Shown here: piece after piece, positions 20,077 through 63,660 of the stretch
Numbering within the stretch: position 1 is the first letter of the stretch
Layout of the letters: each line of letters opens with the position of its first letter
Source of the DNA: Marsupella aquatica
Taxonomy: Eukaryota; Plantae; Marchantiophyta
Assembly (NCBI GenBank): GCA_973895155.1
Contig: OZ316891.1
Coordinates: forward strand, 18,533,987-18,597,986
Length of the DNA stretch: 64,000 nucleotides
Direction: 5' to 3'
Position numbers and translations under genes: made by a program
The notes under the pieces: generated by a model
Told to the model about the DNA's origin: nothing
Seen by the model: only the letters and a program-made list of their open reading frames with translations
Database searches by the model: none

Positions 20077-20229
20077 ATCCACTGCCACATTACATTGCAT
20101 GTAGGGCATGATTAGGAAAAATTAGGCCATATATAAAGCGATTTTTAAAAAAATGAACTCAAAAAACAATTAGGTTGGTTTATACATGGGGTTTTATTAC
20201 CCTTTTATATTTGTTAGCATGAAACCCAA

Positions 20230-27139: not shown

Positions 27140-27997
27140 TTACAAGACATCTATGTGCCAAGGAGTAAGTTCTGAAGTTGTCAGTTGGAGAACATCATAT
27201 TTGCGCACTGGCAACCACGCAAAAAGCGAATTAGATTCCCCAAACCCCTGCAGTTGAGTGTATATCTGTTGATAATGTTTCCGATCTTCAGCTAAATTCA
27301 GACTGGACCATTTTGGAGTGTTTCGCCACAAATACACATGCACATCTCTTGCCAAGGCCAACTCCTGCAACACTGGTTGCAGTTTGTTGCTTATAAACAT
27401 ATCTGCAAGGAAACCACTATTATTGCCGTTGAAGCAATCACAAAACAACGTCGAGTATTCGGGGTTAAAGAAACTTCTATGAGGTAAATCATCAAGAAGG
27501 ATGGTGTTGCTGTCATTATAAGGTGCGCTTGTCCGATCTCAATTTAAAACGAGGTCATCCCAAATATTTTTCAGTAATTTCACAAAGCAATTTTTCCCTT
27601 TGTTTCTTCTAGCCCCATAAAATATCCCAGTTGACAAGGCTTCTGCTTCAGTTCTCACAAAGACAAATTGATGCTTCTCGTTGGGAAACACTTTCTCCAA
27701 AATCTCATGCACATTATGATATACGGCACAGACCCATATCCCCACATCAAATGTCTAAAGACACCATTCAACGAAGCGCCGCATTCCCGGTCTTACATAG
27801 ATGATTCTATTCTTTAGAAACAATGTCTCCCCATTTTCAGTATTTATATCCCTAAGAGACTTTGCTTGCACTCCCGATATTTGCACAATATGTAAGAGAA
27901 CATTCATGTCAAGTACGACTAGTTTACGAGGAACGGTGTTTTGTATAATAGTTGCCATATCGTATGTTACAATATCTGCAGAGTGACAATTTAACAA
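27140..27997 (-). pseudogene. FCP1/NIF-type HAD phosphatase-like domain
   Basis: KLVVLDMNVLL...IYVRPGMRRFVEWCL...GIW...K.L..IW...YNDSNTILLDD. Interrupted by stop codons. Confidence 0.75.
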
Positions 27998-28104
27998 TAA
28001 ATATCAATATTGTAAAGTCCATGCAAGAGCGTAACATCAATTACAACGCATTGCAGCGTATGGAAATCTAACAATAACCTATTCCACACGAGAATCACGT
28101 AGAT

Positions 28105-28740
28105 CTAACTCAAATGGTGATGATAAAGGCTTAGAACAATATTCCTCCTTTCAGCATCCATGTCCTCGGCTTTGAAATCAATAGGCTTCTCCCTACTCTG
28201 GTAATTGGCAAATTTCATGACAAATACTCTGCAGTTGTAGTCATCGGTTTGAAGAGGGATGTCTTTACAACAGTTTCTCGGCCATGACAAAGCATTCAGT
28301 TCCTTATGAGTTCTGAACATGGCTTCATCATCTAGATATCTTGCTAGGTTCTCAAGAACTTCAGGGTTATCTTCGTGCAAAGAATCCAAATAGTCCAGTT
28401 TCCTAAGACCCATGTCGATGACGACCAGTGCCCAATGGTTATGTCCCTCATGAATAGGGACCATGACCATCTCTACATCAGTTAAAAAGTACTCCAACTT
28501 CGAGGTCCAAGTTTGAACATCGTCATACTTATATCCACCTCGCGCAAGTTCCGAATAGAACCAAGTATCAAAAATATGAACCTGCGGGAGGTCGGTACCA
28601 GCGGATTCTACTCTCGAAGCAATCAGACCAAAATAAGCATTCAGAATTTCAGAAGTTATCCATCGCTCGGGACCTAGACATGCCATCTCGTGACGAGTTA
28701 TGATGCATCCACTGATTGTCGACAAAACTAAATCCTGATC
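28105..28740 (-). CDS. Ulp1/C48 SUMO protease domain (C-terminus of the 501-aa ORF 28105-29610)
   Basis: WITSEILNAYF, FDTWFYSEL, VPIHEGHNHWALVVID, YLDSL, PLQTDDYNC; catalytic H, D, Q and C are all present. Confidence 0.92.
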   Translation of the reverse strand, partial: DQDLVLSTISGCIITRHEMACLGPERWITSEILNAYFGLIASRVESAGTDLPQVHIFDTWFYSELARGGYKYDDVQTWTSKLEYFLTDVEMVMVPIHEGHNHWALVVIDMGLRKLDYLDSLHEDNPEVLENLARYLDDEAMFRTHKELNALSWPRNCCKDIPLQTDDYNCRVFVMKFANYQSREKPIDFKAEDMDAERRNIVLSLYHHHLS

Positions 28741-29399
28741 CATGTCAGGGTTGAGGCAAAAGTCTATCGCCACATCATCGTTCAAGTTGAGAGAAGTGGG
28801 AAAGAGTGAATTGGCACCTGCCTCATTCGCAGGCTCCACTGCAAGTTCCACAACAACATTATCGACATGTCCAATGACGGGCTCGACCTCGCATGGACCC
28901 CGATTTTCTGCCCAAGTGTGGGGAGGGGATGGATTGATGATGTTAACGGCCTCTTGAATTCCAGTGACAACCCGAAGGTACTCGGAAGGATCCTCAGACA
29001 CAACCAGTGCAATATCATTTACAATTGAGTCCACCTCGCCAAACGACCCCACACGAGGCTCGCGTAGAGATAGAGGTATCCCACCGTCATTGTGTTCTTC
29101 CTCCACAAGAGGTCCTTTGGAACTCCCTAAGTGGTGGATCGGTCTTTGCGCCTCACCAAATTCCCATGGACGGCGAATCTGTTCCCCAACATTAATCATT
29201 CCAACACAAGGATCAGAAAATCTGTTATCGTCTTGATGGGAGACTGTTCCAGTGACATGATAGTGCCTCTCTTCCTTTGCGCCACTTGCATTTGAGTTTT
29301 GCGTTGAGCTGCCCTCCCCTCCTGGAAGTTTCCATAAGGATTTTGCGAATTGTGTGACACCCTCCAACAACTTGAGATTCTCCGCATAAGCCGTGAGGT

Positions 29400-30493
29400 C
29401 CATCACATCCCCCCTTTCCGAACAAAAAGAGAAACATTCCCTTTCTAGAAGAAGGGCATTCTTTAAAACTTGCCCACCAATAAAGAAGTCCAACACAATT
29501 TCCTCCTTCTCGGAAATTCGAAGAATGATTGCCTTGATAATTCTGCTGGGCTTAATGTTTGATGTAAATGTTTTGCCACCGGGGGTCCGGAAAGGAATGA
29601 GTCTATACAAGCGATCTCCAAGAGCGGATTTTTGCTTTGCTGCAACCTCTTCCTAGGAAAGGCCAGCATAATCTTCTTTGGCTGGTCTTGCCAGTTCAAG
29701 CTAATCCATGGATTCCGCCAAGAAATGACCTTGAAACCCTCTGAAATGTTTTTCCTAATCCGGTTCTTGTTCCTGGGAGACTCCAAGGAAAACAAGGGAC
29801 TCAATAATATCCGACATGAAATGCGATGAGCGGACTTCTTTCGCACTCTTCCAATAGCTTCCATACTCCAGATGAGCATTATAATTGGAAGGTAGATCAG
29901 TGACAGCTTCAATAATTCTAGCCAGCAAGAGACCTGAGTGCACAAAAAACACGACAGTCACCAAGTCGTTGGCGGGGACATTCACGACAGTCTTCAAGAA
30001 ATTCAGCAGCTCTAATTGTGTCCAAGTATTTTGAATTGAGTGTGTCATATCGACAATAGCAAGGGATGCATTAATCCTCTCCCTACAACTCATCGAATCA
30101 AAAGGAGGCTCCGCGGAAGCAAGAAGATTCCTAGAGTAAAATATTTGATATGGATCCATTCTCTCGCGGACAGTTCCCCCAAATTTCTTTTGGTAAATAT
30201 TCCGTAACCTATTCTTCAAAGGTTCCAGCATATTGGATTTTGCAGAGACCTTGACTAATTAAACTCTTGAAATAAGCATTGTCAACCATTGAGCAACATC
30301 GATCCAATTCTTCATTCGTGAAATTAAACTCGCGGACCACGTCCGACCAAACGGCCCCAACATTGAAAAAACTTTCATAGGTCTCGCGGTAGAACCGCAA
30401 GATTGCACCTTTCAACTTTTCAGTATACTTGGCTTTCATGGCAAGATGGGACATTGAAGGTATATCTGTCCTTGCATGTCTTCTCTTCATCAA
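29400..30493 (-). pseudogene. Degenerate beta-class amino (N6A/N4C) DNA-methyltransferase-like domain
   Basis: KPSRIIKAIILRISEKEEIVLDFFIGG resembles the KP..L...I...S...D.VLDPFxGSG signature. Upstream LAIVDMTH sits where the DPPY motif is expected. ORF 29755-30231 is in frame with 28105-29610 across three stops. Confidence 0.6.
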
Positions 30494-32380
30494 GAGAACC
30501 TCTCCCGATTAAACTTTATTCAAGATAGAGGTAATGTCAGATTCTTGCGCCCCCTCAAATACCCTGAATGTCATCCTAGTAAGCTACTTTGCTTCCCTCT
30601 TCTTCCCAGTCATATCTCCATTGTTGTCAAGTAAACTACCGGACAACCAACTATTGCAGATTGACATCCACAACTTATAGAGGCTCTCCGATGCAAAAAG
30701 GATCCAGTTGTATTTGCTGATGCTACTCACTTTCAGTGTGACTTTGGCCACCCTTCGTAATCTTGAAACCCAACAACAAATGGTAAGAACAACACAGTAA
30801 ACCAAACCTTTGGAGAAGGTATCTTAGAGCCAAGCCTCGGATTCTACACGAGGCTCGTGTAGACCACAAAAGAAATTATAGTGTCAACAAGAACGGACCT
30901 GGAATTCCTGGGATTTTTGCCCTGACGGCACTGGCCGCACTGGTCGATTCATTTCTGAATATTGCATTCTCACATGCCTGACCTGGTCGATGAATGGTGA
31001 TGAGAAACAATGTGCTTCAGCTTGCAAGTTTTTTGCATGTGAAATTGACCCCTTGAGAATTCTTGCACGACGGAATTTGAGAAGGTTGGCCGTTTCAACC
31101 AGAGATGGTTGTGTCCAAGAACTCCAAATGATTTTCCTCGCGGCCATAGTTGAGTGTTGACCACTTATTGCAAAATATTGATACTCGGATAATTGTTTAG
31201 AATCAAAATCTCTGACGGAAAGATCGATAAGTGTCATTTGCCTATCCAACGATTAATACGTGCAAACCGTACTTTCTTTGCTTAAAACGTTGGTATCGTG
31301 TTACGGGGTCGTGGACGCTATTTGGAGGATTTCCACACCTAAGGATGAGTATGTTTGATTCCGCTCCCGGAAGGATATTTTTTGATCAAGTCTACTGACT
31401 GGTCTCTCCGTTTTTTATCAAGTCCAAGGGACTGGTCCTACCTTCTACAACTCATGCCCACCGGGTGAGTGCTGTCATCACCCCCTCTCATGGGCAAGCA
31501 TACAAACATTTACTATAAGATTTGAACACTAGTGACAAGGGGAAAATGTTTCCACAACGGAACCGACCACATGCACTAGGGGAGGAAAACAAACAACACA
31601 AGCAACAATAAGTGACACAAAATATTGGAACCTCAAGCCAAATCCATATCTCTTGGTGTTTCTCGTAACACATGCAAGGGCAACCCGGCCTCCTGCCGTC
31701 TGCCCAACTCCTGCCTCCCTGGGACAAGAGCTACGTTCTCCACCTCACTACTCTGGCTTGAACTTCTCCTAATCAGTGCGCTACTCACAAAAGCTACTCA
31801 AAGCACTACGCTGAGTTTTCCCCCCCACTACTACGGGGCTCTCCCCCTAAATACTCAAAACAACACACCATTGAAAGCACCCCTCACGGGGTCACAAGGA
31901 TGGCGGCTACCCTAGCGGCGCCGCTAAACTCTTCACTAAGGAACCCCTAAACTAAAAGCATGCGGCACACACCTGCTTCTAAAACCCTAAACCCTAAACT
32001 AACAATGGGGCCGACGGTGCCTTCGATGGCGCCCCAACATTACTCCATGAATCGTGAAATTGCAAGGAACCCCATAATGGCCGAAACTAGGTGCCCTTCC
32101 ACTTGCACCTCTGAGTTCACCCTGGAGATCCCTCCTCCTCCTGATCATGAATCACTCAACCGCTCTTGAAACGGACATCGGACGACCAAGTTATGGTTGT
32201 TTTAGTATCCCATAAACCCAACTTTGTCGGGCCCTAACTTGCTCATCCTGGCTCCGTTTGAGGAGCGCTGCCTCTTGTTGGACTCAGCTCCGCAAGCTCT
32301 TTCCAACAAGCCCGTGAGTGACCCCTCACAAAAAAAATTGGAAAGTCAAGGGGCCGTACAACCACATCGATACGACCACT

Positions 32381-34242
32381 CTAATCCTCCTCCTCTTCAC
32401 TCACGGTACCCTGGCTTGAGCCCCGTGAGTGGGCCTCCTCATCACTCTCCACTGGAGTGAGTGCCACTTCACTCCTCTTCTTCTTCATCGGGGTACTCCT
32501 TGTGCTAGTGCTCCCCTGCTTCCTCAAATTGGCCAAGGCTTGCCACGCCTTGATGTACCCCTCACCAATGGTGTCCTTCCATAAGGCCGCCTCTTCACCG
32601 GATTGCAACTCCAACAGTAAAACCTGCCCGGTGGCCATGGGAGTCCCAGGGGTGACAGATCGGGGTGGCATCCCCGGGGTCCCCATGTTGACATGAGCCT
32701 CTCGTAACGATTTACGTACCTCCCTGAGCTTCTTCTCTAAGCTCTTGCTCTTCTCTTGACTCTTCTTGGCTGCATCCAAGAGGGGTCCATACTTTCCACT
32801 GACTTCCTTCACCACCATCTCAATGGCCCTGGAGATCAAATCCGGGGAAAGTGTGGAGCTAGGTGTGCAGGGGCTCTTCCGTTTCCCCAGACTCAAGGCC
32901 TCACTCCTCTTAGCCCTTGTCTCAAAGATCACCATTTGACCCCGTAGTGCTCCCACCTGAGCTCTTAACTCCACCACTTCTCCAGAATTCTGCTTCTCTT
33001 TGGCCAATGCCTGTTTCAATACTTCAACCTCTTCCGCTTCCTTGGCCTTGGTGGACAAGGCTCCTTTCAAGTTGGAGATCTCTACGTGAGCTGCTTGGAG
33101 AAGCTTAACCTTCTCATGCATGGCCTCCTCCTTGGCCTTGATCACCTCCTTCATAGACAGGGCATTCTGCTCCAGAGTCTCTACTCTAGCGGTGGCCTGC
33201 TTGAGAGAATCTCTCAATGCGTGGACTAGCTTGAGTCCCTCATGGACTCCCTCCCGGAAATCCCGTAATTCCGCCAGGTAGACATCAGGAATGTCGTAGA
33301 CCAGGGGCTCCTTCAGATCTCCCACAAGTGATTCAAGCCACTCCAATGTGGAGTCCTCATCCTGGTTTTCTTCCTCTCTATTATCATCCCCAACCGCCGA
33401 CGATGATCCCTCCGTTAGTTTCCTCAAGATGGTAGTGGCAATACTCCTGATTTCCGTGGTAAGGGATGATCTTGAGTCTTCGTTTCCCGGGGGAACACTC
33501 CACCCTTCTGCTCTGGCCAGCAAAAATGACCCCATCAAATGTACAACCCCACCTGGTTTCATACTCCCGGAATCGGCATCCAATAGCTTCTTCAACCCGT
33601 AGTACCACCATCCGTACACATGGGTTGGATAGTTCTTGATGTCCATAGCTACCATGAAATGCTTTCCATTCACCACCCCGGATTGCACGTTACCAAGGAC
33701 CCGTTGATGAACCTTGGCCAGAAATCCCTTGTGCTCAGCATCCTTGACGGCGGAAAGAGGAATGGAAGTAGTGGAGGTGGGATTAATCACCCAACCGGCC
33801 ACCATTGTCAACGTGAGCTCTCCCCTTATGTTCTGAGGCATGAATGAGAATTGCTGGTTCTCCAGAAATAGAAGCTTAGCTAACTCCATATGGGGCACTA
33901 CCCATTGGAGACATTCAAAGTAGATTCCTTCCGTACGTAACTCCATCCCGGCCTCAATGTTCCAACTCTTCCCCGAAGGGATTGTAATCTCCACCTTCAT
34001 GAACTCCGTGAGCCCGGTGGCTTGAAAAATATTCCTACAATCCTCCATCACCTTGGCGGAGGTTTTGGGATAAATTTGACGGAAACATTCCTACTCACCG
34101 GTGCGGAACTTGCCGCCAGTCCAGTACTCATCACAACTTCTCTCTCTTCTCTCTCTCTTGCAATCAATGTCTCAACGTAGTCACGGTAAGCAGCCTTGTA
34201 TCTTCGAATGCGTGCCGCACTAAACTCCGGTTGATTCCGCAT
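32381..34242 (-). CDS. LTR-encoded ORF (556 aa plus a frameshifted 5' part): globular N-terminal domain and long coiled coil
   Basis: Uninterrupted ORF 32381-34051 with a heptad-rich C-terminal half. IFQATGLTEFM loosely parallels FMAGSGLETFV in the solo-LTR ORF. Confidence 0.7.
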
Positions 34243-35039
34243 CCATGCATCCAGAAATCAAATCTTCAATCACCAAATCCCATCACCCGTAGCAATGTCA
34301 ATTCCCTGGCCCGAAATGGCCCCCGTATCCCGATCAATCAATTACCCTCAATTCCCTCAGAAGCCACTCAATGCCGTCGCCTCTAATGCCCAAAAAGAAT
34401 GTGAGCCCCCAAGCTCTCCCAATCCACCATGAGAGAGCTTGCAAGAGAGAGAGCTTTCGGAAATGGGAGCAAAGTGCTTTCGGCAAAGGGCGGAGTCGCG
34501 TAGAAAGTAGGGAAGGAGAAAAGAAAGGAAAATGGCTAATACAAGGGAAAGGGAAGGGAACCCCTCCCGTGTATTTTTTTCCTCCTGGCTCCTTGGCTTT
34601 CGCCATGCGCCCCGGCTCGCAGCCCTATGAAGGGCTCACGCATGCCGACACGCGGCCCTCCTCACCTCCAACTCACGGGCCCCAAATGCATGCGGCCCTA
34701 TGCAGGGTGCGCCCGGTCCTGCTTCCTCCTCACAAGAGGGTTTAATACCCCCCCACCCTCTCACCCCTCCTTTGGGCCCGGCTCGCGAGAGCTTTCCCCC
34801 CTTCCCATGACCTTTTCCTCCTGGCACCGGCTGCGGTGCATCCCGGCTTGCCTCTCGCCCTGGTAGCACCACCTGGGCTCGCCCACTCGCGCTCCTGTTG
34901 GGGGGTTTAACCCCTCCCCCTTTTTTTCTTCTCCCTTTACTCCTTCCCCTACCTGCTGCCGTGTGCCTCCAGCGCCCATCCCTGCATCCTCCCCGGCTCC
35001 CATCGTACGCCCAGCTCTTGGTATGCTCCTATCTTCTGG

Positions 35040-35530
35040 CCATGGTACCCTCCTGTCTTCTGGCCACGGTACCCTCCTTGGTACCCCCGGCTCCTGCTGC
35101 CCGCGGTACCCTCCTCGGTCACGGTACCCTCCTGCCCTCCAGCTTCCCTCTTGCCTCGGTACCCCCGGGCCATGGTACCCTTGGTACCCCCGGTACGCCT
35201 CCGGCCATGGTACCCTCCACTCACGGTACCCCCTGGCTCCTGGCCACGGTACCCCCGGTACCCCTGCCTCCTCAATGGAGGTCAAGGTACCCCCCGGCTT
35301 GGTACCCTTGGCACCCTCGGCTCCTGCTGCCCGCGGTACCCTCGCGGTACCCCCGGCTCCTCCCTGCTCATGGTACCCTCCTGCTCGTGGTACCCCCTGT
35401 TCGCCCTGCCTTGGCTCGCGGTACCCCCGGTACCCTCTTGTCTTCTGGCTCGCGGTACCCCTGCCTTGGCTCGTGGTACCCCAAGTACCCTCCTGTCTTC
35501 TGGCTCGCGGTACCCCCGGTACCCCTGCCT
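35040..35530. repeat. GGTACC-core minisatellite inside the LTR (copy at 40360-40620)
   Basis: Dozens of ggtaccc cores, mostly spaced about 10-25 bp apart. Confidence 0.9.
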
Positions 35531-35779
35531 TGTTCTCCCACAAGACCCAAGAGAGCAAAGGGTGAATTAAAAAATTAGTTCCTCCCGGGTTCAAATAGCT
35601 CCGGCCCCTCCAAAGCCACATGAACACCCACCGGGCTGAGTAACTTTTAAGAAAATAAAGAATTTAAAAAAAAAACTTGTATATCTTGGCTTATTTATTT
35701 ACATGCATCATGCCAATAACACCTAACGGTGACTTTATGTGATGGGGACCCCGTCACATAGCTCCTCTCTTAATTGCGA

Positions 35780-38700
35780 AGCGCCCCCGCGAGCACCATA
35801 CTCCTCCTTAGCATAATACTTCTTTAGGCGTTCTTGATTAATCCGTGTGTTGAGTAGTTGCCCTTCCAGCGTTTTGAGCTGAACCAATCCGTTGGAGTAG
35901 ACCACATCCACAAGGTAGGGCCCCATCCAACGTGTATGTAGCTTCCCCGGGAAATGCATGAAACGACTGTCGTAGAGGAGCACCAAATCTCCCTCCTCAA
36001 TGGACACACGGCGTCGGGAATCGTAATGCAACTTCCGTTTGCCTTGTTGTTGCTCCGTGTGCGCCAGAGCCTCCTCTCGTACTTCCGTAAGTTGCTCTAA
36101 TTGTTGGAGTCGTGCAGCGACACTATTTTCTTGCCCTTCCCTTTCCTGTGTCAGGATTCGAATGGTGGGCACCTCAAATTCCACCGGCACCAAAGAATGT
36201 TGACCAAACACAAGGGAATAGGGGCTGTGGCCAGTGGTGGTCTTGTGAGCCAGGTTGTAGGCGTAAGTGGCAGCTAGCAACTTCAAATCCCAATCTGTTT
36301 TGTGAGCTGACACCGTCTTGTTGAGAATCTTGCCCATGATCCCGTTTGCTCTCTCAGTAAGCCCGTTGGCTCGTGGATGGTAACGGGTTGTCTTCCTATG
36401 GGAGACCAAGTAGTTCTCCATTAGACGCTCAATTGTATGATTGAGAAAATTAGTACCCCTATCACTTACCAGCTCCAAGGGCCCTGGGCCCCCACTCTTA
36501 GGTAAAATGGGTCGGACGTGAGAATGATTCAAGGGTCGATTTAATTCATGTTGAAGTAATTTTTAGAATTGGCTTGTAACTAAGCAACCCACTCTTTTAT
36601 ACAAATGTCACTTTCCAAATAAGGAAGAGCACTTGATATTCCGCTCCCATTTGTTTTTGGGAAGGGGGTATATAATCATCTCCGCCACACGGCATCATCT
36701 TAGTGGTACACGTGGCATCATCTATAGGTACACATGTCTATGCCTTTTGGTATGCCGTTGTAAGTTGTGGCGGGGTTGTGGGGTTTAGGGTGGGTGTTTT
36801 GAACTACCCTGTGAGGAAACACATGGGGCAAATCCCTGCCCATTGGATCCGAGGGAGGGAAGATCTTTGAACAAAGAAAATGTAACTAATGAAGCCTATA
36901 TAAAAATCCTCAAATCTGGATTTTATAATTATCTCAAGGATATTAAGTATTGTCAAAATATATTTTTGTCTAAATAACAAGGCAAATTTTTATTGTTTAA
37001 AAAATAATAACAAGGGGTACTAGAGGGGGGTCTGTTCACAGGGGGGTAGAGATTTCTTAGTGGGAGTGGGGGCCCAGGGTCCAAGGGTGGGCCGAACCGT
37101 GTAAAAATCTGCTCATACAAAAACCGTGCTGTTGTGTTGGCATCATCTTTTGCAGTTGCTCGGGCCTCCACCCACTTGGTAGCATAGTCCGTAGCTAGGA
37201 TGATATACCTCTTCCTTCCCCTCTGTGTGATGGGAGTGAACGGACCAATGAAGTCCACTCCCCACTTCTCAAATGGGGCAAGAGGGAGGATTGGCACCAA
37301 TGGATGTCGTGAGGAGGGGCCAGGTTTCCCTTGGCGTTGGCAGGGGTCACATCTCTGGATGTACCGGTGCCGGGACCGGTGCACATCCCGAAAAAGAGTT
37401 GGCCACCAATATCCCGCATCCAGTATCTTTCTAGCAGTTGTCTCCCGAGCAAAGTGACCTCCTGCTTCCTCCTCATGTAGTGCTACCATGATGGTACGTA
37501 TCTCAGCTTCCTCCAAACAACGACGAAATCGGCCATCCATGCCGTACTTGTGTAGTACTCCTTTCACAAGCAAGTAGGGACCCGTCTTACATAAAAATAC
37601 TGCTGCACGTTCCGGATCTAACCGTAATGGAACCTTAGCTATACGGAGAAATTCAAAAATTTCTTCATACCAAGTAATGGCCTCCGTAGTCACCCTGAAG
37701 ACTTCTTCATCGGGAAAACGATCATCAATCTCTTGAGAGTCAGATGCTCCCTCAATACATGAGAAGAAGTTAGCATTGCTGTGACTCTTCCCGGATCTCA
37801 CCCTCACCTCATAGTTGAACTCCTGCAATAATAGGACCCAACGTGCAATTCTCCCCGACAAGTCTGGCTTGTTGACCATGTACTTCAAACTATTGTGATC
37901 CGTGTGGAACACAACCTTGTAACCCAACAAATAATGATGATACTTCTTACAAGCATAAATGATACCAAGAGCCTCCCTATCGGTGGGTGAGTAGTTTTTC
38001 TCTGCCGGGGCCAACTACCTACTGGCAAAGTAGATGGGATGATCCCTCCCATCATCATCCAACTGACTCAAGACGGTACCGATGCAAAACCCTGATACGT
38101 CCACGTAAACATGGAACTCCTTATTCCAATTAGGCGTAATGAGTACGGGAGCCTCTAGCAAACGTTTCTTCAATTCATCAAAAGTAGCTTGTCGGGAAGG
38201 AGTAGGTTCAAATTCACTTCCCTTCTTCAACATGGATGTGAGTGACATGGCTACCTTGGCAAAGTCATGAGTCGTTGAATCATGCCAGGGGCATTGCACA
38301 ACCCAAAAGGCATTCGACGGAATGCAAAAATCCCCCACTCCGTGGTGAAAGCCGTCTTGAGTTGATCCTCCTCTCGTATCCAGATTTGATTGTATCCAGA
38401 GTAGCCATCTAGGAAGCTGTAAATCTCCCAACCAGCCACCATATCCAACACAATATCAGTAAACGGCAACGGGTAGTGATCCTTCTTGGTGGCCTCATTC
38501 AACTTCCAAAAATCTTGACACACCCGTATTTTCACCTTCCCGTCCGGCCCCTTCTTCTTGGGCACTATCACGATGGGTGATACCCACTCACTATGCACAA
38601 CCGGATAAATGAATCCTGCATCTAACAGACGGTCAATCTCCTCCTTCACCATGAGTGAGTACTTGGAATTGAGACGGTATTGGCGTTGCCTCACTGGCCG

Positions 38701-40360
38701 TGCTACAGACATCAAGTCAATGCTATGCTCACCAAACTCAGGTGGCACTCCCTTCAAATCTTGGTGGCTCCATGCAAATACGTCTTGATACTCCTTTAAC
38801 AACTCTTGAATAGTGCTTTGCTCCGTAGCATCCAGCTTGCTACCAATGTTGAGTGTCTTGCCTTCACCCACCTCCACCTTGGTGTACTGCTCCGGCCTGA
38901 TCACGTCCAGCTTGTTACGTGTCTCCTCATCAAAAGTCTCCTCCAACCGTGCTAGTCGCATTCCTCCGTACACTGGTGCATCACTATCCTGTTGGTCTGG
39001 CTGAGTTGGGGGTGGGTCTTTTGTCACATGGGCCATCATTTTTTCCACGTCAGATTCTTTGTAATGTGACAGTAGCTCCTCTCTTAATTCTTCATCCAAG
39101 AGGTCATTCAGCCACTCCTCCCTTCGTTCATCGTCAAACAGAATGGCTTGAGCTTCCTGCCCCTCCTCCTCCGTTTGTTCCTCCTCCATTTGTTCCTCCT
39201 CTTGAGTATCAACAAGTTGGGCCAGGGGTGGTGTAGGTGGCTCTTCCCTGGTTTTCCTCTACACAACATAACTTTGGTCAAGTGGTACTTCCGTAATTTC
39301 CTCCTCAATGGTAGCAGCTTGTGGGCCAAAGACATCTTCCTCCGTCAGATGAGAAATCAACTTCACCATGTATACTTCATCCTCGTCTTCATCCGAGGTG
39401 ACCTCGGGATCATATTGCTCTTCCATAGAGGTAGTCTCCCCCTGAGGTGACTCCGCTGACCAGGGAATGATAATAGTGGGGGTACCAAACCGAAACTGCC
39501 GTTTGCCCCAATCGCTGGTTACTTTAGCCACATACAACCAAGGACGACCAATTAGTATGGGAAAACCGTATGGCCTGACTGGCCGCATTACCAAGTAATT
39601 GAGGGGAAAGGATCTCCCTCCAATCATTGTTGGAATCTTGGTGAGACAACCCAACGGGACCACTCGTGCCCCATCTGCCAGCCTCATGGCACGTGCTGGT
39701 GGCTCCAACTCCGTATATCCCAACCGATTGGCTGTCTCCTCGGTCATGATGTTGACTCCTGAGCCGCCATCCACCGGTACAAACCGTATTGCACATCCGT
39801 TGATGTCCATCGTGACCTCTGGGGCACCCAAATCCTCCGTGACCCAATTGACTTGTATGGGGTCAGCCCCGACTCTTGGCAACCTTCTTCTACGCCGCCT
39901 CCCCATGAGCATCTCCTTGACTTGACGGCGGTAGAGGGAACTATCATGTAAGAGTTGACCAATGGTAGCAGTGACCGGGCAATGTAGAATGTCTTGGCCA
40001 ATATTGTACGCTGTTGCAGGAGGTATGGGTGGGATGACGTCCTCTCTTGGTTTCCACCGAACAACCTTCTCCTCCGCTTTCTTTCTAGCCTTTGCCTCCT
40101 CCAGGTCTTTGTCAATGGCCGCTTGCATTTCTTGTGCTTCTAGCTCCTCTAGCTGCTTACGTACTTCCTCCCCCACCTTGGGGTAAAACAACTTGGGGTT
40201 ATCCCGGTCAAAGTCGCTATCTTCCATGGGTGGCACCTCCGGTTTGTGTGAGGTGCCCGATGTGGAAGCTTGATGCACCTCCTTGTACTTCTGCTTGAGT
40301 TCAGACTTATCCTTCTTTTTCCTAGACCGAGTGGAGACCCAGTAACAAGAGTAGTGTCTC
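35780..40360 (-). pseudogene. Gypsy gag-pol remnant: protease, RT (internally deleted), RNase H, integrase
   Basis: PR VDGGSGVNIM. RT LDGYSGYNQI and MPFGLCNAP, with the YxDD segment missing. RH YVDVSG and TDHNSL. IN H..GGH...CDPC, GVDFIGP, SDRG, NGLTERAN, WMGPY. Confidence 0.93.
36482..37079. mobile_element. Non-autonomous TIR element (MITE, 598 bp) inserted in the integrase
   Basis: 16-bp TIR CCCTGGGCCCCCACTC. 8-bp TSD TCCAAGGG at 36474-36481 and 37080-37087. Removal restores RFGPPLELVSDRG. Confidence 0.93.
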
Positions 40361-42849
40361 CCCCGGTACCCCTGCCTCCTCAATAGAGGTCAAGGTACCC
40401 CCCGGCTTGGTACCCTTGGCACCCTCAGCTCCTGCTGCCCGATGTACCCCCAGCTCCTCCCTGCTCGTGGTACCCTCCTACTCGTGGTACCCTGCTGCTC
40501 GTGGTACCCCCTATTTGCCCTGCCTTGGCTCGCGGTACCCCCGGTACCCTCCTGTCTTCTGGCTCGCGGTACCCCCAGTACCCTCCTATCTTCTGGCTCG
40601 CGGTACCCCCGGTACCCCTGCCTTGTTCTCCCACAAGACCCAAGAGAGCAAAGGGTGAATTAAAAAATTAGTTCCTCCCGGGTTCAAATAGCTCCGGCCC
40701 CTCCAAAGCCACATGAACACCCACCGGGCTGAGTAACTTTTAAGAAAATAAAGAATTTAAAAAAAAAACTTGTATATCTTGGCTTATTTATTTACATGCA
40801 TCATGCCAATAACACCAAACGGTGACTTTATGTGATAAGACTGTAAACACCATTAATCATCTTGTAAGGCACCAGATCTGCAGGCAAAGGTTCCTGACCG
40901 GCATTTGAAATCATCAATTGAACAAGATGGTTGACATGGTCTTTGTTGAGTAACCGCTCATTCATTTTTGCCGGCGGAGGATAGATATTCATCAAAGGAA
41001 CGAGGAAAAATTTTGACAGCCCAAAAGAATACCAGCATTGGTTTTGCTGCAAAGTCTTTTCTGCCCTCTCAAGTCTGGCTCGATCAACGATTACTTTAGA
41101 ACTCGAGTCAGCATTTATCTCTCCCATGTCATCGACGACATCCATCTCAATCATCTCCACTTTCTTACGTTGTTTCTTCGGGATTGGGACACCGGTTTCC
41201 GGTGCCTCTTCTGTTCCCTCAGTCTCTCTTTTGCAGCCCCTTCCACGCTTGGACTTCTTCGATCTTGTCACCCCATGGTATGTGGATACGTCTTGCACTT
41301 GAGTATTGACCTTTTGAGATTTTGAAGGCACCTTCTGTTTCACGACAGCGGAAGGTGTTGCAGTGGAAGCCTTACGAGACAAATCCTTCTTAACGACACC
41401 TTTTGATACGGGTTTTGCTATCTCTTCCACAACTGCCTGCTTCTTTTGAGCCTTCTTCCTGATAGCCTTCTTTTGTTCTGGCATTTCGGCCGCTTTATAC
41501 TTCTTCTGTGGTTGTTTGGACTTTGTGATCTGTGGCCCTTTCACCTCAGTAGAGCTAGTGCGGATTTTTGCCTGAGGGACATTAGCTTTCCCAACCTTCT
41601 CTGGAAGAGCAATCTTTGAAGACAATCTCTTCTTCTTGGAAGGAGGAGCGTCTTCTTCCATTCGCTTTCTTTTCTTTTTCTTTTGCACCTCCATCTCAGT
41701 CTCAGAGTCCTTTTCCTCTTCAGCGTCTGAGCCTCCCACTTTCGCAAGTTCTTCATCCACGGCTTGGATCTCATCTTCAAAGATCTCCTCTGTTCCAACC
41801 AATTCAGGACTCAAAGAGTCACTGGGAACAATGCTCGGTTCATCTGATGTACCCTGTGAACTTGATGATCCTGAATCTAAACTCGACGATGATCCAGGTT
41901 CCTGTACAACTTTGCTTGCTTTGAGATTTGGGCCACCACCATGACGTCCATGCCTTTTCTGATTCAAATTGAAGGCCTTCACTACAGGATGGATCGCAAC
42001 CCAACGTTTAATCCTTTCCTCGTCAACTGGATCTGGGAAAGCAATTTCTGGAATGATCTCAATCTCCTGCCGGAGTTCATCTTCCGGTAAAGATAGAGAC
42101 ATAACGTAAACAACATGCCTGGTTGTAGAAAGGTGAGATTGATAATCTTTGAAGAACAAAAAACTAACCCTTCCTAGCCCTGAAACAATATCCTCAACAG
42201 TGAGAACATTATCTGGATCCATGAAACGATGAGAGGATGGATGAAAAAATCCTAAGGACGTTATGTTGATTGTCGCATCATTTGGCTCAAGACAATGTGT
42301 GCAACAATATTGTTCAACGGGAAGATAGAACTCTCTATATCCATAATTAATGCGGTCCTCCACCGTCACTGTCAGAAAGACCTTCCCCTTCTGGTGCTCT
42401 GGTGCTTTTGAAATCCTACAATCGGCAAGCACACCCAAGTACTTCCAAAACCTCTTGGGCTTGGCAATAACGATCCCCTGCAACCAACACCTCCAAGCGT
42501 CACCCTCCATACGCATTTCAAAAGACCATGAATTGACGATTGGATTTTGGTGGCTAACAATGCTTTGACTTAGCGACTGCGGTAGGCACGGGTGGCTGAA
42601 ACAAACATACGGGAATCCTAGGAAAGAACCAATACGGAAGATTTAGAACAGAGTCGAAGATGTCAAAACAAATGTTGAGATTTTATTATTCACAAAAATG
42701 GACAATCCGTCCAGAAAACAACTCATTCAACCAAAATGGACTTTGCCCGCTCGACTACCATCTTCTAAAGTTGGGGCACATATTCATTTGGGTGCCTCGA
42801 TATCCAACTAAACAACTCGTCTAGTACTAAGTCTTGACAGATGAGTTCT

Positions 42850-43703
42850 AGGGAAATGTCTCCTAGGCTGCTTCCTTCTTCAGCCTCTTGATAGTCTAGA
42901 GGTGGCCTTCCTCCTGGGCCGTCATGATAATCAGCTTCTTTGTGAGCGTTTGTATCTGACTCTCACAAAGCTCATCAAGCTTGGCGGCCTCCTTCATCAC
43001 TAGGCACAACTCCTGACATGTCTGAAGATGGTTCCGCTGAGCTCAAAAATATCTTCCAACATAATCCTTTCTAATCAAACTAATCTCTTCATCTTTCTCC
43101 TTCACAGTTTCTTGCAGGGTCTCAAGTTCCTCGAGGACATCCTCAGTCATTTGGGACTCCTTCTCATGTTTATCTTTGATCAATTTCAAATGTTTCAAGG
43201 CATTGTCGATTTGGCCTTCAAGGTAACAAATGAGCCTCAGGTGAGTAACATGCTCTACACGAGAGTTGCGTGAAAGCAAATGGAAATGATATTTACTCCA
43301 ACGCATTTTCATACGGAAGCATTGATGGGATGAGGATCGTCCAGGATCTACACGAGAGTCGCGTGAAGATAGAGATAAAAAACATCTAAAACTGATTCGG
43401 AGAAAAAGACTGAGGGTTACCTTCAAGCATGATCTGTGCATTCACGGCATAGTACTGGAGCTCATCTACACGAGTCTCGTGTAGAAAACTTAGTAATTAC
43501 TAGGTATCGCATACAACAAATAAATCTAATAGGATAATGTCTACACGAGACTCGTGTGGAAGGAACCGCTGAAATTTGAAATAAAAACAAACAACAAAAA
43601 GAAAAACTAAAGATCTACACGAGTGTCATGTGGAAATACCTTCAACTCTGGTGAAAGCTGCGACCGACATCTCCCGGACCTCTGATTCGGATAGATTTGC
43701 CAT
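42850..43703 (-). pseudogene. Small coiled-coil gene remnant of the giant element
   Basis: YLEGQIDNALKHLKLIKDKHEKE...LEELETLQETVKEKDEEISLIR, continuing past stop codons. Confidence 0.4.
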
Positions 43704-44281
43704 GAGACCTCTTTGCACGTGTGAAAAAATTCACAAAATATGGATGGAATTGAGCAGAACTCAGAGGGAGAGACGAATGAGCAAAAGGGCGGAGAATGAG
43801 CGAGAGGGCAAAGATGAAGGAATGAGTGAATGAGCAAATCTCCTTAAAATATATACCTAACACGAGGAATGGGCGAGCGTGAAAATGGGCCGGCGTGAAG
43901 CGTGAAGACATCATTAAGAGCGCCGCCAAAAATATCGACGAATCTTACTAGACGACAATCGTGCAGAGCTATCAGCCTGTCACATTCAAGCAGATGTGCT
44001 TACTCTTTTGTCATTATCTGTTGTCATTATCTGACATGATTAATTGCGCCGCCAAAATATTGGAAAATCAGACCACACGACAATCTAGCAGAGCGGCCAC
44101 CCTATCATTCTTTACCATTATATTCGGGATTTCTATCTGGGAATGGTATTTATCGATTAGTCGTCCTGATTCTCTAGTCATTCTCTCGCCAGACGTGAAT
44201 GGTTCCGAGGACAGGTTTTGGCACGGGTTTGAGTCCAAGGACTGCTTCTGGGCACCCAATCGGTACGTCCCTTCTGGGATT

Positions 44282-44356
44282 TCATTCCTGTGACTGTCTC
44301 ATTCCTGTGATTGTCTCATTCCTGTGACTGTCTGCCCGGTCAGTGTCTCATTCCTA
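44282..44356. repeat. 17-bp tandem repeat (tcattcctgtgactgtc)
   Basis: Three to four copies are visible. A separate degenerate ggaatttgtaccc repeat lies at ~44640-44725. Confidence 0.8.
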
Positions 44357-47300
44357 TCACTCTTGGAGAATGTTTTTTAGGACAATTATTTGTACCTCAT
44401 TTCTTTCAAAAGTTCTACTAAATAGGGGTACTGTAATAGGATATTTAGGATTTCAAAGAGGAATTAGACCTCATTTCTTCCATAACTGCCCTAATTTTAG
44501 AATTAGACTTCATTTTTTCTTAATTGAAGACGATTGAGGGTCCTGACATGGGTTATGTCTTGGTCTTGAGGAATTGGACTTCAATTGTAACACAATTTAT
44601 CAGTTGGGTGGTTCCTTAATGTGATATTACATGGATTGGGGATTTGTACCCTATTGGAATTTGTACCCTAATGGAATTTGTACACTAGTGGACCTTTTAC
44701 CCTGTTGGAATTTGTACCTTGTTGGACTTTTCTTCTCTCTTAGAGTGAAGCATCGAATAATAGTGGGTCCTTTCCTTCTTCTTGTGGGACTTTTTGTCAT
44801 AAATGCATATGATTGTGATAATTCCGTTATGTTTGGGAGATGTTTAGACGTAAGCTGATGCTCTACACGAGGCTCGCATAGCCATCGAACCTCCTTGTGT
44901 TTCCTTCCACTACCTGTATGCGTTAATAATTCTACACGAGCCTCGTGTTGAGGGATACTACCGTGCATGTTTTATTCTGGTTAACCAGGTCTTTTCCTGC
45001 CGGTGAATAATTCCCATCACAACTACATTTTCACATTTCGGGACCAGGTGTAACCTAACCCAAGAAGACTTTCGTTCCATTAAAGTCGGACTATATGTCG
45101 TTAATCTCCGGACTGTTGTCGGATGTCGTCCGGAGATTCGACGGGATCAGATAACGTCGATTGTCATGACGTTAAGTTTACGTCCTTTAAGACACGGTAA
45201 GTTACCTCGTATCATACGTTGTACCTCTCATTACGTCTTCCTAGACGAGGTAACTTACCTGTTTCCTAAAGACGTAAATTAGAACGATGTATAGGACAAC
45301 GTCCATAATTTTAGGCATTTGGAATGACGTATCTGCAGATACGTCGTCATAGAATACCATACGTACATTGGGGAAAACGGCGTTAATTCCACATATCAGC
45401 GTTGGACAAACTCAACTATAGGTGAGAGGCTCATTATAGCCAGCATTCCCGAGTGAAGACATCAAAGTGTAGAGAAGTTGAACCGTGGGAGGCAAAGTGT
45501 TCAGCTATGGTGCGGAAGTTCTTTGCAAATGTGCATTGTTGTTTCCTCCCACTTGGTGAGGAGGAGAAGATGGTTTGAGGGTTCTTTTGCCGTGGAGGGC
45601 TTGTTGACAAGCTATGTACCTCACAGGCTTGTTGACAAGCTATGTACCTCACAGACCGATTTCTTGATTGCAAATACGTGGAAATAGGTTGTGGAGCACT
45701 TCAGTGACTATGCTGGCTTGATCGAGCATTTCGCTGAAACCTTGCATTTCATCTCTACTCGGTGGGTAGAGTGCTCCATTCTTGTCAACAAGCAGCTGGA
45801 CCCAGGAGAGTTCTTGTTGCATCCAAGCAGTGATCGTGGTTTGGAAGATTCGCCCGAGGATGATGATGGTGAGGCCTACCCTCCCACCTTGTCTAAATGT
45901 GAGCTGTCACCCATTGAACTTCAGATTGCTATGTTTGATTACAAGGAAAGTTGTGCAGCCAAGGTGGAGGCTTAGAGGCTACAGGCCAGTGAAGCTGTTG
46001 TCCGGAAGAATTGGAATGCCAGCCAAAGGCGTGCTTCATACAACAAGAGGATTGAAAGTGGATGAGGAGTACTACTGGTCTGGAGAAGGGACTCCTTAAT
46101 CAACATCAGTTTGGAGGGAGGTTGTAGAGGGATGACCATGACTCATGTAAGCTACATTTGCAGTAGAAAGGATGGTAGAGCTATAGTGTATCTCTATTTG
46201 GTCTATGTGCAACAATAAACACATCCATGAATGTTATTTGTTGCAAAAATTGTGTGGTTTGAATGTTGTATCTTTTTCCTATGATTAACGTCAAAAATCA
46301 TTTGTTACGTTGAATGAAACATCGTATGTAAATTGCTAACGTCGTTATACTCGTGGTAATATAATTTTGTCTCTACATACATCGTTAAGTACGTCATTTT
46401 TACCTTGTTACAAAGTTTAGGGCGACGTTAAAGAGAGTTATAACGTTGGATAATGGTTCGGTACACGACGTTGAATCGTGTTACGTCAAGGAGGCATAGC
46501 TATAAACGACGTAAAAAATTGTGCATCGACGTAAAATTCCAAGGATGACATTAATGACAAGTATCCCTTGTAGCAGAAGGCCGAGGGATCATGTGCATAA
46601 ATGTATGGTTGTTACTTGTTTCTTTACCAAGTTATTAACACAAGCCCATCCCACTCTCCAAATACATAGATGCCTAGGCCATGAAATATGTGTGTTTATA
46701 TGCGAGGAGTGACAATAGTCAATACAAATGGCGATAGTGAGTCTATCATGTCAATCCTCATCGTCTGCAAGAGCTGATGGCATGAAGCCCTTCCTACGGC
46801 GTGGAAAGATGGGAATCACAATGGACCATCCTCCCATGGTCTGCATCGGAACCATAATGCATTGATCCACTTGGCTAGGAAAAACTATAGTGTCACTACA
46901 CTCAGTCCCGCTTGGTGCAACACGGGTCGTGTCCACACGATAAAATCCACACTCATCCTTCACCATGGTAGCTCTTGCTGGAGGTGACATGATGGACTTG
47001 TGCCACCTCACCTCTAACACTGTGGTGGTAAACGAGCCAAAATTAACATCCAAAATATCCAAGACTATGCCACAATAAGGAACCTCAACATCACCTACAT
47101 CGGTCACCATTTATACTCCAGAGTTACAAGTACTCTTCTTCATATGGTCCGTCCTCCAAGTCCGAAAGTGGTGCCCTGACTCATACATGTGAGTATGAGT
47201 CATAGCCCACATCGAAGGCCCCCTAATGATGTTTTGTACATCAATGGGAATGAATGTAGGGCCATGCACTGCCAGGAGCCCCTCCATGCACTCCAAGGCC

Positions 47301-61198: not shown

Positions 61199-61950
61199 AG
61201 GAGGCCTAATTTTGTATGTTATATCTTGGATTTGTATTCAAAACACCCATTTGTGGTGGCATATCATTCCAGGTTACAATGTGTATAATGAATGCATGTA
61301 TTCTATATTGAACCAGAACAACAACCCGAACCAGTCACGTACTACCGTGCCTAATCACGTATACTATCGTGCCTAATCGTGTATACGTCCTGTTGTGTTA
61401 CACTCTTAACTGTTCCGATCATCGTGATGGACTACGTTCCCCAATGTACGTCCGCATACAGAAGCAGATAACCATGTTATTTACTGTGTACGTAGACCGT
61501 ACCAAACATCGTAAGAAACGTCACACTTAACCAACTAAACTATGTTGTACCCGTTAAACGTGGTGTCTTACATGGCAATGTACAACGTATCAAACTTGGT
61601 TAAACAATGTCTAACGTCATTTCTAGCCACGTCAATAGGCCATGTTATCAACAATGGCACGTTGATGTTAACGTCGTCTAATACAACGTTAAGTAGAGAA
61701 CGTCTCAGTCGGCGATGTTTAAGTACATCATGTAATGCTACGTTAAGAACGTCCGAGTGTACATCCTCGTGTACATCATTAGTAACGTCGCTACTTAAAC
61801 GTCGTTGGGTGGGACTTTTCCACACGTCGGCTGAACGTTGCAATTAACGTCTGCTTAAATTACGTTAATCAGGCAGATAATGTAGTTGTGCATCTTGTGT
61901 CCACACGAGAGTCGTGTCAAAGTTACTGTTAACCTCGAATCAGTCAAGAA

Positions 61951-62580
61951 TATGTTTTCCCCTGGGGATCGAGTTAATCTCTTATTGAATGATGAACCGG
62001 TTGCGGGTGGGACGGTTTTCAGCATTACTCCCTCGGACTCTTGTCACAACATTCTGATTGGCGAGCATAGAATCAGTGTTTTTGTTGAGGATGCATTCTT
62101 CCACCTTGCTGAGTTACCTTATCCAAACGCAGGGGCGGACCTGGTCGGTGAAAGCTTAAATTCAGTAATTTTGTGGGATTGGTCTAGCGTCAGGTTTGCG
62201 GAAAGCCAGCGCCCGGTTGATCCAGGTGACAACCAAGAGGAGATTCCTCTAGAACGGGAAGCAGGTTTTGGGGAGCAAGATGCCATGGGAGACACTGTCC
62301 ATAGTCAGGACAATGTTCTCTTGAGAGAGGACCTGAGCAATCAAAGCAGGTGGTAGTTTGCTTTGCTTTACAAAGACGATGATGAGATACTACTGGCTTG
62401 AGGGTGTATCACGAATTCACACCCTCAAGCATTGATTAACAATGAGAGAGTTGGAGATGATCATGTCGGGATCAATATTCTCACACTGGCCGCCGACAAA
62501 AACATCTCAAAGATGACGTTCCCTTATTTTGTTGAGGGAATGCCTTGCACAATCAAATGGCCTTTGCGGAGAACTCGGAT
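61951..62580 (+). pseudogene. Two tandem DUF8039/Tnp1-like beta domains upstream of the transposase
   Basis: VAGGTV...CHNILIG...VFV...LPYP...VGESLNSVILW, then a second degenerate copy LA*GCI...VGDDHVGINI...IKWP. Confidence 0.5.
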
Positions 62581-62779
62581 CGAGCTTGGAATGCAATTGT
62601 TAAGCGATCTATTGGATCAAAATGAATTCCTGAATCCTGAGCGAGCAATTGTATCATATGTTAAACCAAAGCGAGCTAGAATAATCAACATTGCAACCCG
62701 CAGGCTCCTGAGGAGAAGGAAAGGAAGAAGATTCATAGAAGGCGTAACAGAAAGAAGACTCAAGAATCTATTGATGCTA

Positions 62780-63660
62780 TTTTCCAGGTTGAGTGCTGCA
62801 CAAAGAATTGTTGTAGGAGACAACAGTGGGAAGTGGTCAATCAGATTAGAGATGAATTTTATGGTCTCTCTCACGCCGATCAACAGATGTACGTTTTCAA
62901 CCATCTACACGGGAGGGATACGGAAACTATAGAGGCCGGGATGATTATTTTTTGTGGGACACATGTCTGTAAAGAAGGGTTTTGGACCATCCATGGTTTC
63001 TCCAGAGGAACCTTCTATTCAATCTATAGTCACTATTGGAATGGGGCAAAACTTGGCGTTCATGGCAACCAAGGATCAATGAAAACCAAAGACTACGTCA
63101 CGCTGTTTGTGGAGTCTATACAAAGTGTATTCCAGAAATGTGCAGAGCCCATGCCTCATCTCCATAAAATTGGAGAGTCTGGAAAGCAGGAGGTCGTGTA
63201 TAGGGTTCCTATAAGCTACGAGAGGAAAGATGTTTATGAAGAGGCTTGCAAGCTTAACAAGAATCTTGGAGCTTTTTCTCTTGTCATCGCTACTTTCTAC
63301 AAGATATTGGAGAAAAAGTTTCCCAATTTTCAGCTTCTTGATCGAAGCAATTTTGCAAAATGCGATCTCTGTACTACAATCAAAGAGACTCTTTGAGGCG
63401 AGAAGAGACAAGATGTTGTTCTTGAAATCAAGGCCAAAAGAGAACGTCACATGTTGAAACAATAGTCTCAGAGAAGCATGTATTATGCAGCCAAACTGGC
63501 AGCAATCAAGAGCCAGAGAAGTATCTCTCGGTGATTCATGACAAAATGGATCAAGCCAAAACAAGGATACCAAAAATGACTTCAACTCTTAAAAGTCAAG
63601 CGGGTAAATCAATTTCGTTACCGATGACGTTGACTAGAATGCTCACGCATGGACGGTGTC
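62780..63660 (+). pseudogene. Sola-like (DUF7869-type) DDE transposase, N-terminal half; breaks off at ~63660
   Basis: CCTKNCC...IRDEF, VCKEGFWTIHGFS, HGNQG, AEPMPH, FAKCDLC, KYLSVIHDKMDQAKTRIP, MLTHG. Confidence 0.7.

Follow-up and report, generated by a model that had tools for sequence, protein, structure and literature searches.

What kind of cargo does a transposon carry when methylase-like, SUMO-protease and phosphatase-like domains lie side by side, and could these domains act together? This question is raised by a locus in a 64-kb stretch of Marsupella aquatica DNA (the window). The preliminary description saw in it a multi-enzyme toolkit carried by a transposon and pointed to Ulp1 as common cargo of Mutator-like elements. 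We found the modules on the minus strand in the order charged region, YFAISGQHS domain, methylase-like domain, Ulp1 and NIF. The element comprises 8,893 bp and the remainder of the window 55,107 bp. The features are as follows.

27140..27958, minus strand: NIF/FCP1-like HAD domain with two in-frame stops (PF03031, E 2.1e-8 on read-through)
27976..28109, minus strand: possible 134-nt GT-AG intron, proposed from sequence only, whose removal would bring NIF into frame with Ulp1; one palindrome lies in it
28084..30862, no strand: three palindromes, at 28084 (just past the Ulp1 stop), 29049 (coding linker) and 30844 (likely intron)
28120..28665, minus strand: SUMO-type protease domain (Ulp1/C48) that shares an open frame with the methylase C-half (PF02902, E 9.9e-32)
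29350..30200, minus strand: domain of beta-class amino-methyltransferase fold, with DMTH at the likely motif IV, DFFIGG at motif I and three in-frame TAG stops (29 relatives)
30200..30760, minus strand: helical region that separates the ParB-like domain from the methylase-like one, with stops and frameshifts in this copy (alignment with relatives)
30899..31225, minus strand: remaining half of the ParB-like domain (YFAISGQHS; alignment with relatives)
31232..40833, minus strand: Gypsy-type retrotransposon, a secondary insertion foreign to the element (Pfam: RT, RNase H, integrase, protease)
40834..42516, minus strand: 5' part of the main gene, with an unassigned N-terminal ~170 aa, an acidic/basic low-complexity region and the first half of the ParB-like (SGQHS) domain (open frame 40828-42642)
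42860..43441, minus strand: small reading frame of coiled-coil type that precedes the main gene (ORF 43043-43441; coiled-coil Pfam matches only, sub-threshold)
43255..44950, no strand: upstream cluster of eight palindromes, mostly non-coding, starting at 43255, 43348, 43466, 43541, 43615, 43948, 44863 and 44932 (0-5 mismatches)
61886..63700, plus strand: broken transposase-like gene with a Cys-rich region, CDLC and IHDKMDQ (translation)

The Gypsy insertion measured 9,608 bp and was bordered by a 6-bp duplication, GATAAG, at 31226-31231 and 40834-40839. Both sides shared one frame, with the halves of the N-terminal domain in frame, and empty-site joints from 31225/6 to 40834/5, skipping 9608 bp, were present in contigs of three of the four runs (X1, X2 and X4; two studies). 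Other copies of the element do not carry this insertion. Together with the Pfam matches, these data confirmed that a Gypsy element split the cargo gene. Variant contigs covered every bin of the element and every module in all four runs and, with the empty-site joints, bore out the proposal of a repeated mobile cargo. Because these contigs were short (longest listed piece ~510 bases), the four runs yielded no further copy holding all four modules, and the four-module set was found in this element only. The element is repeated and likely mobile, with this copy broken, and the gene is multi-copy, likely transposon-borne and decayed here; the pseudogenisation described earlier was evident from stops and frameshifts in the helical, methylase-like and NIF parts. 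The 5' part of the main gene (40834..42516) had no Pfam match, and its last ~70 aa could be aligned with the relatives P0033, P0037 and P0039-P0043. The exon at 30899..31225 probably ends at FQV, the same place as in the relatives.

The methylase part belonged to an unnamed family that includes liverwort members. Intact frames were present in P0033 (1009 aa) and P0037 (1219 aa), both of which hold the ParB-like, helical and methylase parts in one protein. Neither intact protein had a Pfam match, and the family escapes annotation. No members were found in viral contigs, prokaryote genomes or phages; a word-based search with the methylase region gave no match, and a metagenome scan returned a single contig of 1.8 kb that had no flanks. 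The literature covered contained no paper on the family.

The family profile matched M.RsrI with an E of 6e-9, and the methylase C-half by itself gave PF01555 at E 0.001, below the cut-off. Upon superposition on CcrM, the model of P0033, an intact relative (pLDDT ~90), showed a Z-score of 17.6 and an rmsd of 3.6 between 220 aligned residues. Ranks 1-11 of its fold search were beta-class 6mA/4mC enzymes, and Foldseek on the same model gave an E of 1.5e-7. The model predicts a permuted Rossmann-like fold in which the catalytic half precedes the SAM-binding half. The profile match and the Z-score support the bacterial-type amino-methylase fold proposed earlier, and we infer that this fold is of phage or bacterial origin. 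A single-sequence fold of P0033 (pLDDT 35) was set aside, and chance matches to ubiquitin and other proteins from single-sequence PDB searches were rejected. The stretch between the ParB-like and methylase parts was helical, ~240 aa long, and contained frameshifts and a likely intron; it was modeled at pLDDT ~90 in P0033, and the fold search with this model returned no match for it above Z 4.9.

The likely catalytic motif of the family was altered. Motif IV was placed by strand order in the model together with a by-eye match, a placement that a profile-profile alignment of the methylase N-half to phage methylases failed to confirm. At this likely position, all 20 sequences covering the site had D[FLM]xx (DFSR in six, DFAR and DFTR in three each, DFGR and DLTH in two each, and DLLR, DFVK, DFHR and DMTH in one each); PP occurred in 0/20, and the motif was never DPPY. 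The DMTH noted earlier as degenerate is one form of D[FLM]xx, whose occurrence throughout argues for a family-wide loss rather than decay of this copy. The intact long frames of the relatives indicate that the altered form has been kept. Where this copy has a stop at 29703, contigs from each of the four runs have a sense codon. Motif I was DFFxGG in 21 of 22 sequences, one residue short of DxFxGxG, the form seen in four of five phage enzymes, namely those in which the pattern was found. After the next strand, where an acidic residue is expected in the beta class, the family had mostly F/Y-S/A.

Methyl transfer has presumably been lost. That the protein is instead active as a methylase, using a new catalytic motif and writing 4mC or 6mA on the palindromes described below to mark the element's own copies, appears quite unlikely, as the PP and the following aromatic residue were replaced in 20/20, motif I was shortened and the acidic residue was mostly missing. 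Such activity would nevertheless be in keeping with the complete beta-class fold of the P0033 model, the Asp retained after the catalytic strand in 20/20, the highly conserved VNP-K and DFFxGG blocks, the two CpG and several adenines in each palindrome and the active-type Dam enzymes described in retrotransposons (10.64898/2026.05.21.726589, text covered).

Upstream of the methylase part, a ParB-like domain had been proposed. The YFAISGQHS domain was indeed present at that place, but its identity as ParB was not confirmed: no ParB match was found in PDB, Pfam, NCBIfam or PHROGs, the model having pLDDT 30-60 there and the structure searches barely probing that part. A comparison with five plasmid-type ParBs scored 10.1, inside the range of 30 shuffles (7.9-17.2). 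The arginine patch of the ParB/Srx CTPases is GxxRxxA, which was absent; SGQHSxxA stood at the comparable motif in 7/7 sequences. Judging from its best matches, the domain most closely resembles eukaryotic clusters, some with DUF3723. By itself it reached 0.95-0.96 to fungal and cnidarian clusters (atlas feature similarity, computed with no alignment), and the top eukaryotic cluster (0.96) had DUF3723 (PF12520) in 31% of its members; DUF3723 genes are Starship cargo. The atlas also led to phage clusters with ParB_N plus N6_N4_Mtase at 0.78-0.79, and the best viral matches were phage N4/N6 methylases, one of them annotated ParB.

The Ulp1 domain scored 111 bits against a cut-off of 20.7, and all catalytic residues claimed for it were located (His, Asp, Gln and Cys at residues 406, 423, 468 and 474 of ORF 28105-29652). 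This SUMO-type protease is likely active. The FCP1-like assignment held as far as a NIF domain is concerned (34.5 bits against a cut-off of 21.8 on read-through of 27143-28003, with two stops), but CTD-type dephosphorylation appears unlikely because this copy has DMNVL in place of DxDx(T/V). With this motif missing and the methylase motif replaced in 20/20, the toolkit of several enzymes was not upheld. Nor did the sequence show a single polyprotein: Ulp1 and NIF are parted by a stop at 28105-28107, and a likely intron and frameshifts precede the methylase part. Frame agreement between Ulp1 and NIF across the possible intron has a chance of 1 in 3. The four-module set did not extend to the relatives: Ulp1 was present in 0/43 of them, and 14 had a different tail at the end. 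The fusion looks local to this element, and Ulp1 is therefore not needed for the core function of the family. The absence of Ulp1 from the relatives, the position of NIF after a stop and the many lesions of this copy would also suit a pile of four separately captured fragments with no joint function. We regard this as improbable, since the methylase C-half, linker and Ulp1 form a single 515-aa open frame (minus strand), P0033 and P0037 each unite the ParB-like, helical and methylase parts in one protein, and variant contigs from 4/4 runs cover every module.

The element also carried a repeated 19-bp palindrome, CTACACGAG-N-CTCGTGTAG, which the preliminary description had overlooked. Eleven copies were found in the 8,893-bp element against one in the other 55,107 bp, and shuffled windows contained 0-1 each (20 shuffles, 4 mismatches). 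Ten of the 11 lay outside the main reading frame. They do not form a tandem repeat, because their flanks were unrelated; a role as splice acceptors was dropped, the spacings of 74-118 bp being too short for repeated exon-intron units. The twelfth palindrome, at 61901, was beside the transposase-like gene.

No Mutator transposase was found within the element, and the nearest transposases were a CACTA Tnp2 at 46.7-56 kb and an unclassified one at 61.9-63.7 kb, which speaks against a Mutator-like host. The unclassified gene (61886..63700) had no Pfam match and no relative in viral contigs; possibly it is the far half of the same element, with a CACTA insertion at ~44956-61880 in between. No target duplication was found for such an insertion, and no joint across 44955-61880 was among the 15 of 255 joints listed. 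The neighboring Tnp2 element was apparently self-contained, and one CACTA at 26461 had no partner end in the window. The module as cargo of the adjacent CACTA was unsupported, as a sister CACTA (13950-24844) of the same layout lacks it. Repeated motifs of their own are present in both of the window's CACTA elements.

These motifs bear on another explanation, in which the palindromes would serve as ordinary transposase/TnpA sites, the protein being a transposition accessory or an insertion-targeting DNA bridger with Ulp1 as a passenger capture. The densest palindrome cluster lies near the putative left end, one copy is beside the transposase-like gene, and capture of Ulp1 by plant DNA transposons is known (PMC13317346, text covered). 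Three palindromes, however, are inside the gene, at distances of 1.6-4.4 kb from the single CACTA at 26461, and the site is a spaced two-fold palindrome, whereas the CACTA elements of this window have short direct motifs. We consider this explanation rather doubtful.

We tentatively favor, as a possibility somewhat short of an even chance, a pseudo-methylase that is encoded by the transposon, binds the DNA of its own element and carries a SUMO protease, acting like the VANC/Kaonashi anti-silencing proteins. The intact product would be a DNA-binding protein with a methylase fold that is catalytically dead, in fusion with a SUMO protease that is likely active. A dimer, formed through the ParB-like and helical parts, might read the two-fold palindromic site, so that the protein would bind the 19-bp palindromes of its own element and counter silencing there. 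At the element, Ulp1 may deSUMOylate silencing or repair proteins, and NIF would be an optional spliced domain, dead as a phosphatase. The anti-silencing reading follows precedent, as the short motif bound by VANC is located in non-coding parts of VANC's own family (PMC5735166) and Ulp1 is present in some VANC genes (PMC13317346; text covered in both cases). An unlikely variant is that a phage ParB-methylase fusion was rebuilt for parS-like self-recognition: a ParB-type dimer would sit at the 19-bp palindromes, the methylase fold would read or flip modified bases or write 4mC/6mA with a new motif, and the protease would strip SUMO from silencing proteins. If true, an anti-silencing system of prokaryotic origin would have converged with VANC. 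On the pseudo-methylase reading that we favor, sequence-specific anti-silencing, best known from one flowering-plant transposon family, would have a second, unrelated system in liverworts, whose candidate binding site would make both anti-silencing and the Ulp1 role testable. The family also gives land plants a bacterial-type methylase fold separate from the Marchantia sperm 4mC enzyme and apparently retained as a non-enzyme.

Compared with known systems, the family shares its fold and motif order with the prokaryotic beta-class amino-methyltransferases CcrM, M.RsrI and M.PvuII and with phage ParB-methylase fusions. In contrast to these, it has no (D/N/S)PP(Y/F/W), a shortened motif I and a ~200-aa helical region, and it is a eukaryotic gene with likely introns, fused to Ulp1 in this element. 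A bacterial-type beta-class fold is also present in the eukaryotic MpDN4MT1 of Marchantia and N4CMT of a bdelloid rotifer (Z-score of 14.9 to the P0033 model). Those are host genes, whereas here the gene is repeated cargo with the motif replaced. MpDN4MT1 has no extra domains in the text covered of PMC8885841, and the link to liverwort sperm 4mC drawn earlier is weak, as those enzymes keep TSPPY (10.1101/2021.02.12.428880, text covered).

Dead amino-methylases in mobile elements and eukaryotic methylases from phage ParB-terminase loci have precedent (Iyer et al., PMC4738411). The inactive DIRS retrotransposon methylases, METTL14, the ParB-HTH chlorophyte Dam and haptophyte clade 6 belong to other structural groups or lineages, and no land-plant beta-class family is described in the text covered of that paper. 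VANC and Kaonashi (KIU) of the VANDAL Mutator-like elements are likewise transposon cargo with an Ulp1 fusion, and their elements repeat a short motif in non-coding parts (PMC5735166, PMC13317346; text covered). The present protein differs from them in that its predicted DNA-binding part has a methylase fold and no VANC domain, no Mutator transposase is linked to it, and its motif, a 19-bp palindrome, lies in flanks that are unrelated rather than being a 9-mer in tandem repeats.

Using 1.84 billion representatives and E up to 0.001, a search for proteins related to the methylase-like domain revealed 29 relatives, a set later grown to 43. Named relatives of the main gene came from Riccia sorocarpa and Calypogeia fissa, and Streptophyta predominated in two atlas clusters, pointing to a probable origin of the window in a liverwort or another bryophyte. 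Two intact relatives, P0033 (1009 aa) and P0037 (1219 aa), contained the SGQHS domain, the helical region and the methylase part in one frame. The methylase fold was assessed on the model of P0033, not on the window copy; this model, built from 41 sequences, showed a pLDDT of ~90 over residues 280-750. Structural comparison revealed similarity to CcrM with a Z-score of 17.6 and an rmsd of 3.6 over 220 aligned residues, and M.BceJIV, M.MboII, M.RsrI, M.PvuII and rotifer N4CMT were also matched, with unrelated rows well below at Z 5. The family profile matched M.RsrI (E 6e-9). We also observed that the C-terminal region of P0033 (residues ~939-1009) forms a small, conserved domain, GPxKG ... EYGSF, partly with pLDDT above 90, which is found in 13 other relatives and lies at the place of Ulp1 in the window copy.

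The position of the catalytic motif IV was set by strand order and a by-eye match. The Asp that ends the second strand of the domain, which corresponds to the DPPY position in phage comparison enzymes (DPPY being present in three of five), was followed by F, L or M and never by PP in all 20 sequences, and the SAM-binding motif I was DFFxGG in 21 of 22 family sequences. Profile alignment to the phage methylases recovered only the C-terminal half (probability 97.6%); no alignment was recovered for the N-terminal half, which includes the motif IV region. We read the family as a pseudo-methylase, the rival reading being an unusual active methylase. The preliminary description had regarded the motif as degenerate in this copy; the methylase fold was found on a relative, but the altered motif at the likely motif IV site was a feature of 20/20 sequences and not of one copy only.

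The SGQHS domain, previously described as ParB-like, is conserved and real, but its ParB identity was not recovered by scans of PDB, Pfam, NCBIfam and PHROGs or by profile comparison with five plasmid-type ParBs. We take SGQHSxxA to resemble the ParB arginine patch; the arginine was absent there in 7/7 sequences. The P0033 model was poor over this domain. In favor of ParB identity, besides the likeness of SGQHSxxA, whole P0033 gave atlas leads of 0.78-0.79 to phage ParB_N and methylase clusters, and in structure it could be superposed at length, though loosely, on a phage protein annotated as ParB (565 columns, rmsd 25). The domain alone scored 0.95-0.96 to eukaryotic clusters (fungi, cnidarians), the best of which had DUF3723 in 31% of members. 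On balance, we favor membership of the ParB superfamily, with some reserve.

The methylase C-terminal half, linker and Ulp1 formed one 515-aa open frame. As claimed earlier, Ulp1 (PF02902, E 9.9e-32) kept its catalytic residues, all four of which were located. Ulp1 was found in none of the 43 relatives, and 14 of the 43 ended in a different conserved tail, many of the others being fragments; the methylase-Ulp1 fusion therefore looks lineage-specific. The proposed FCP1/NIF-like domain was detected (NIF, E 2.1e-8), but DMNVL replaced its catalytic DxDx(T/V). NIF could be joined in frame to Ulp1 via a putative 134-nt GT-AG intron.

The gene is interrupted by the following insertion:

31232-40833, Gypsy-type element between two GATAAG copies

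Contigs of three of the four sequencing runs (X1, X2 and X4, from two studies) skipped exactly 9,608 bases at this site, and the reading frames matched across both sides; the earlier removal of this element was therefore right. Its 3' LTR-like unit (~4.4 kb, 31299-35758) was bounded by TG...CA and began with a hairpin; it also held a coiled-coil frame of 569 aa (32381-34090) that matched no known family. The 5' copy lacked the first 15 bases, and there were 67 extra bases at the other end.

Across 26.2-45.2 kb, 30/30 bins were covered in all four runs, with several variant contigs at listed sites; thus, the module is repeated, with a copy number not derivable from depth and no contig spanning two modules. 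T/A in the window copy against C/G in other contigs was commoner than the reverse (X1, 435 vs 254 places across all 19 kb), the pattern that decaying methylated DNA would be expected to leave. The methylase part of the window copy had three stops; at one of them, each of the four runs had contigs with a sense codon instead.

A palindrome, CTACACGAG-N-CTCGTGTAG, was present in 12 copies with <=5 mismatches in the window, 11 in the element's 8,893 bases and 1 in the other 55,107. At 4 mismatches, there were 11 in the window and 0 or 1 in 20 shuffles. The flanks of the copies were unrelated to each other. The copies were placed as follows:

Within the element, 8 upstream, 1 in a likely intron, 1 in the linker and 1 just past the Ulp1 stop
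61901, the twelfth copy, just beyond the CACTA element that starts beside the copy at 44932, and before a broken transposase-like gene

The palindromes at 44932 and 61901, on either side of the CACTA, suggest that its insertion split one element in two; no target duplication or joint for this was found among the joints listed. The transposase-like gene (61886-63700, broken off at ~63.7 kb) had a Cys-rich region and an IHDKMDQ motif, and no match in Pfam or viral contigs.

The window was repeat-rich eukaryotic DNA, with an F-box gene and remains of Mutator, CACTA and Gypsy elements. The F-box gene (2084-4003; PF12937), a single intact frame of 639 aa, is probably a host gene. MuDR-like remains were bounded by 34-bp terminal inverted repeats (5574-13495). 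A complete CACTA element (13950-24844) had CACTA/TAGTG termini and a duplication of 3 bp, ACA. It contained Tnp2 at 15.3-18.7 kb, an unbroken frame with a SET domain (18910-19740; PF00856, E 5.7e-6) and, at 22-23 kb, a divergent frame on the plus strand. The second, diverged CACTA (~44956-61880) had the same SET and Tnp2 layout, its SET (57218-57709) being 37% identical to the first. SET cargo thus occurs in two CACTA subfamilies, possibly as a histone-methyltransferase toolkit. The transposase of the second CACTA carried a 4.7-kb insertion of very high depth with a long coiled-coil frame (50401-55118; empty-site joints in three runs) and a ~1.05-kb insertion with 30-bp inverted ends (48416-49468), absent from other copies in 4/4 runs.

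In the most likely reading, which starts from the observed domain content, fold and site enrichment, the intact main-gene protein would dimerise and bind the two-fold palindrome, the dead methylase fold would bind DNA or modified bases, and Ulp1 would be brought to the element to strip SUMO from silencing factors. The observation in the preliminary description was partly confirmed, and its interpretation was partly supported, though not as a multi-enzyme toolkit. A literature search, with supplements outside its scope, found no description of the family. Passages of PMC4738411 give precedents for dead methylases in mobile elements and for eukaryotic methylases from phage ParB loci, and Dam enzymes are noted in retrotransposons (part of 10.64898/2026.05.21.726589). 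In the relevant sections on Marchantia (10.1101/2021.02.12.428880; PMC8885841), the enzymes keep TSPPY, whereas the present family lacks PP at the likely motif IV. As a working analogy, we liken the main-gene protein to VANC, an anti-silencing protein of VANDAL elements, although it is not a VANC family member: according to passages of PMC5735166, VANC binds a motif that lies in non-coding regions, introns among them, of the family to which it belongs, and some VANC versions carry Ulp1, its role being given as unknown in the relevant part of PMC13317346.
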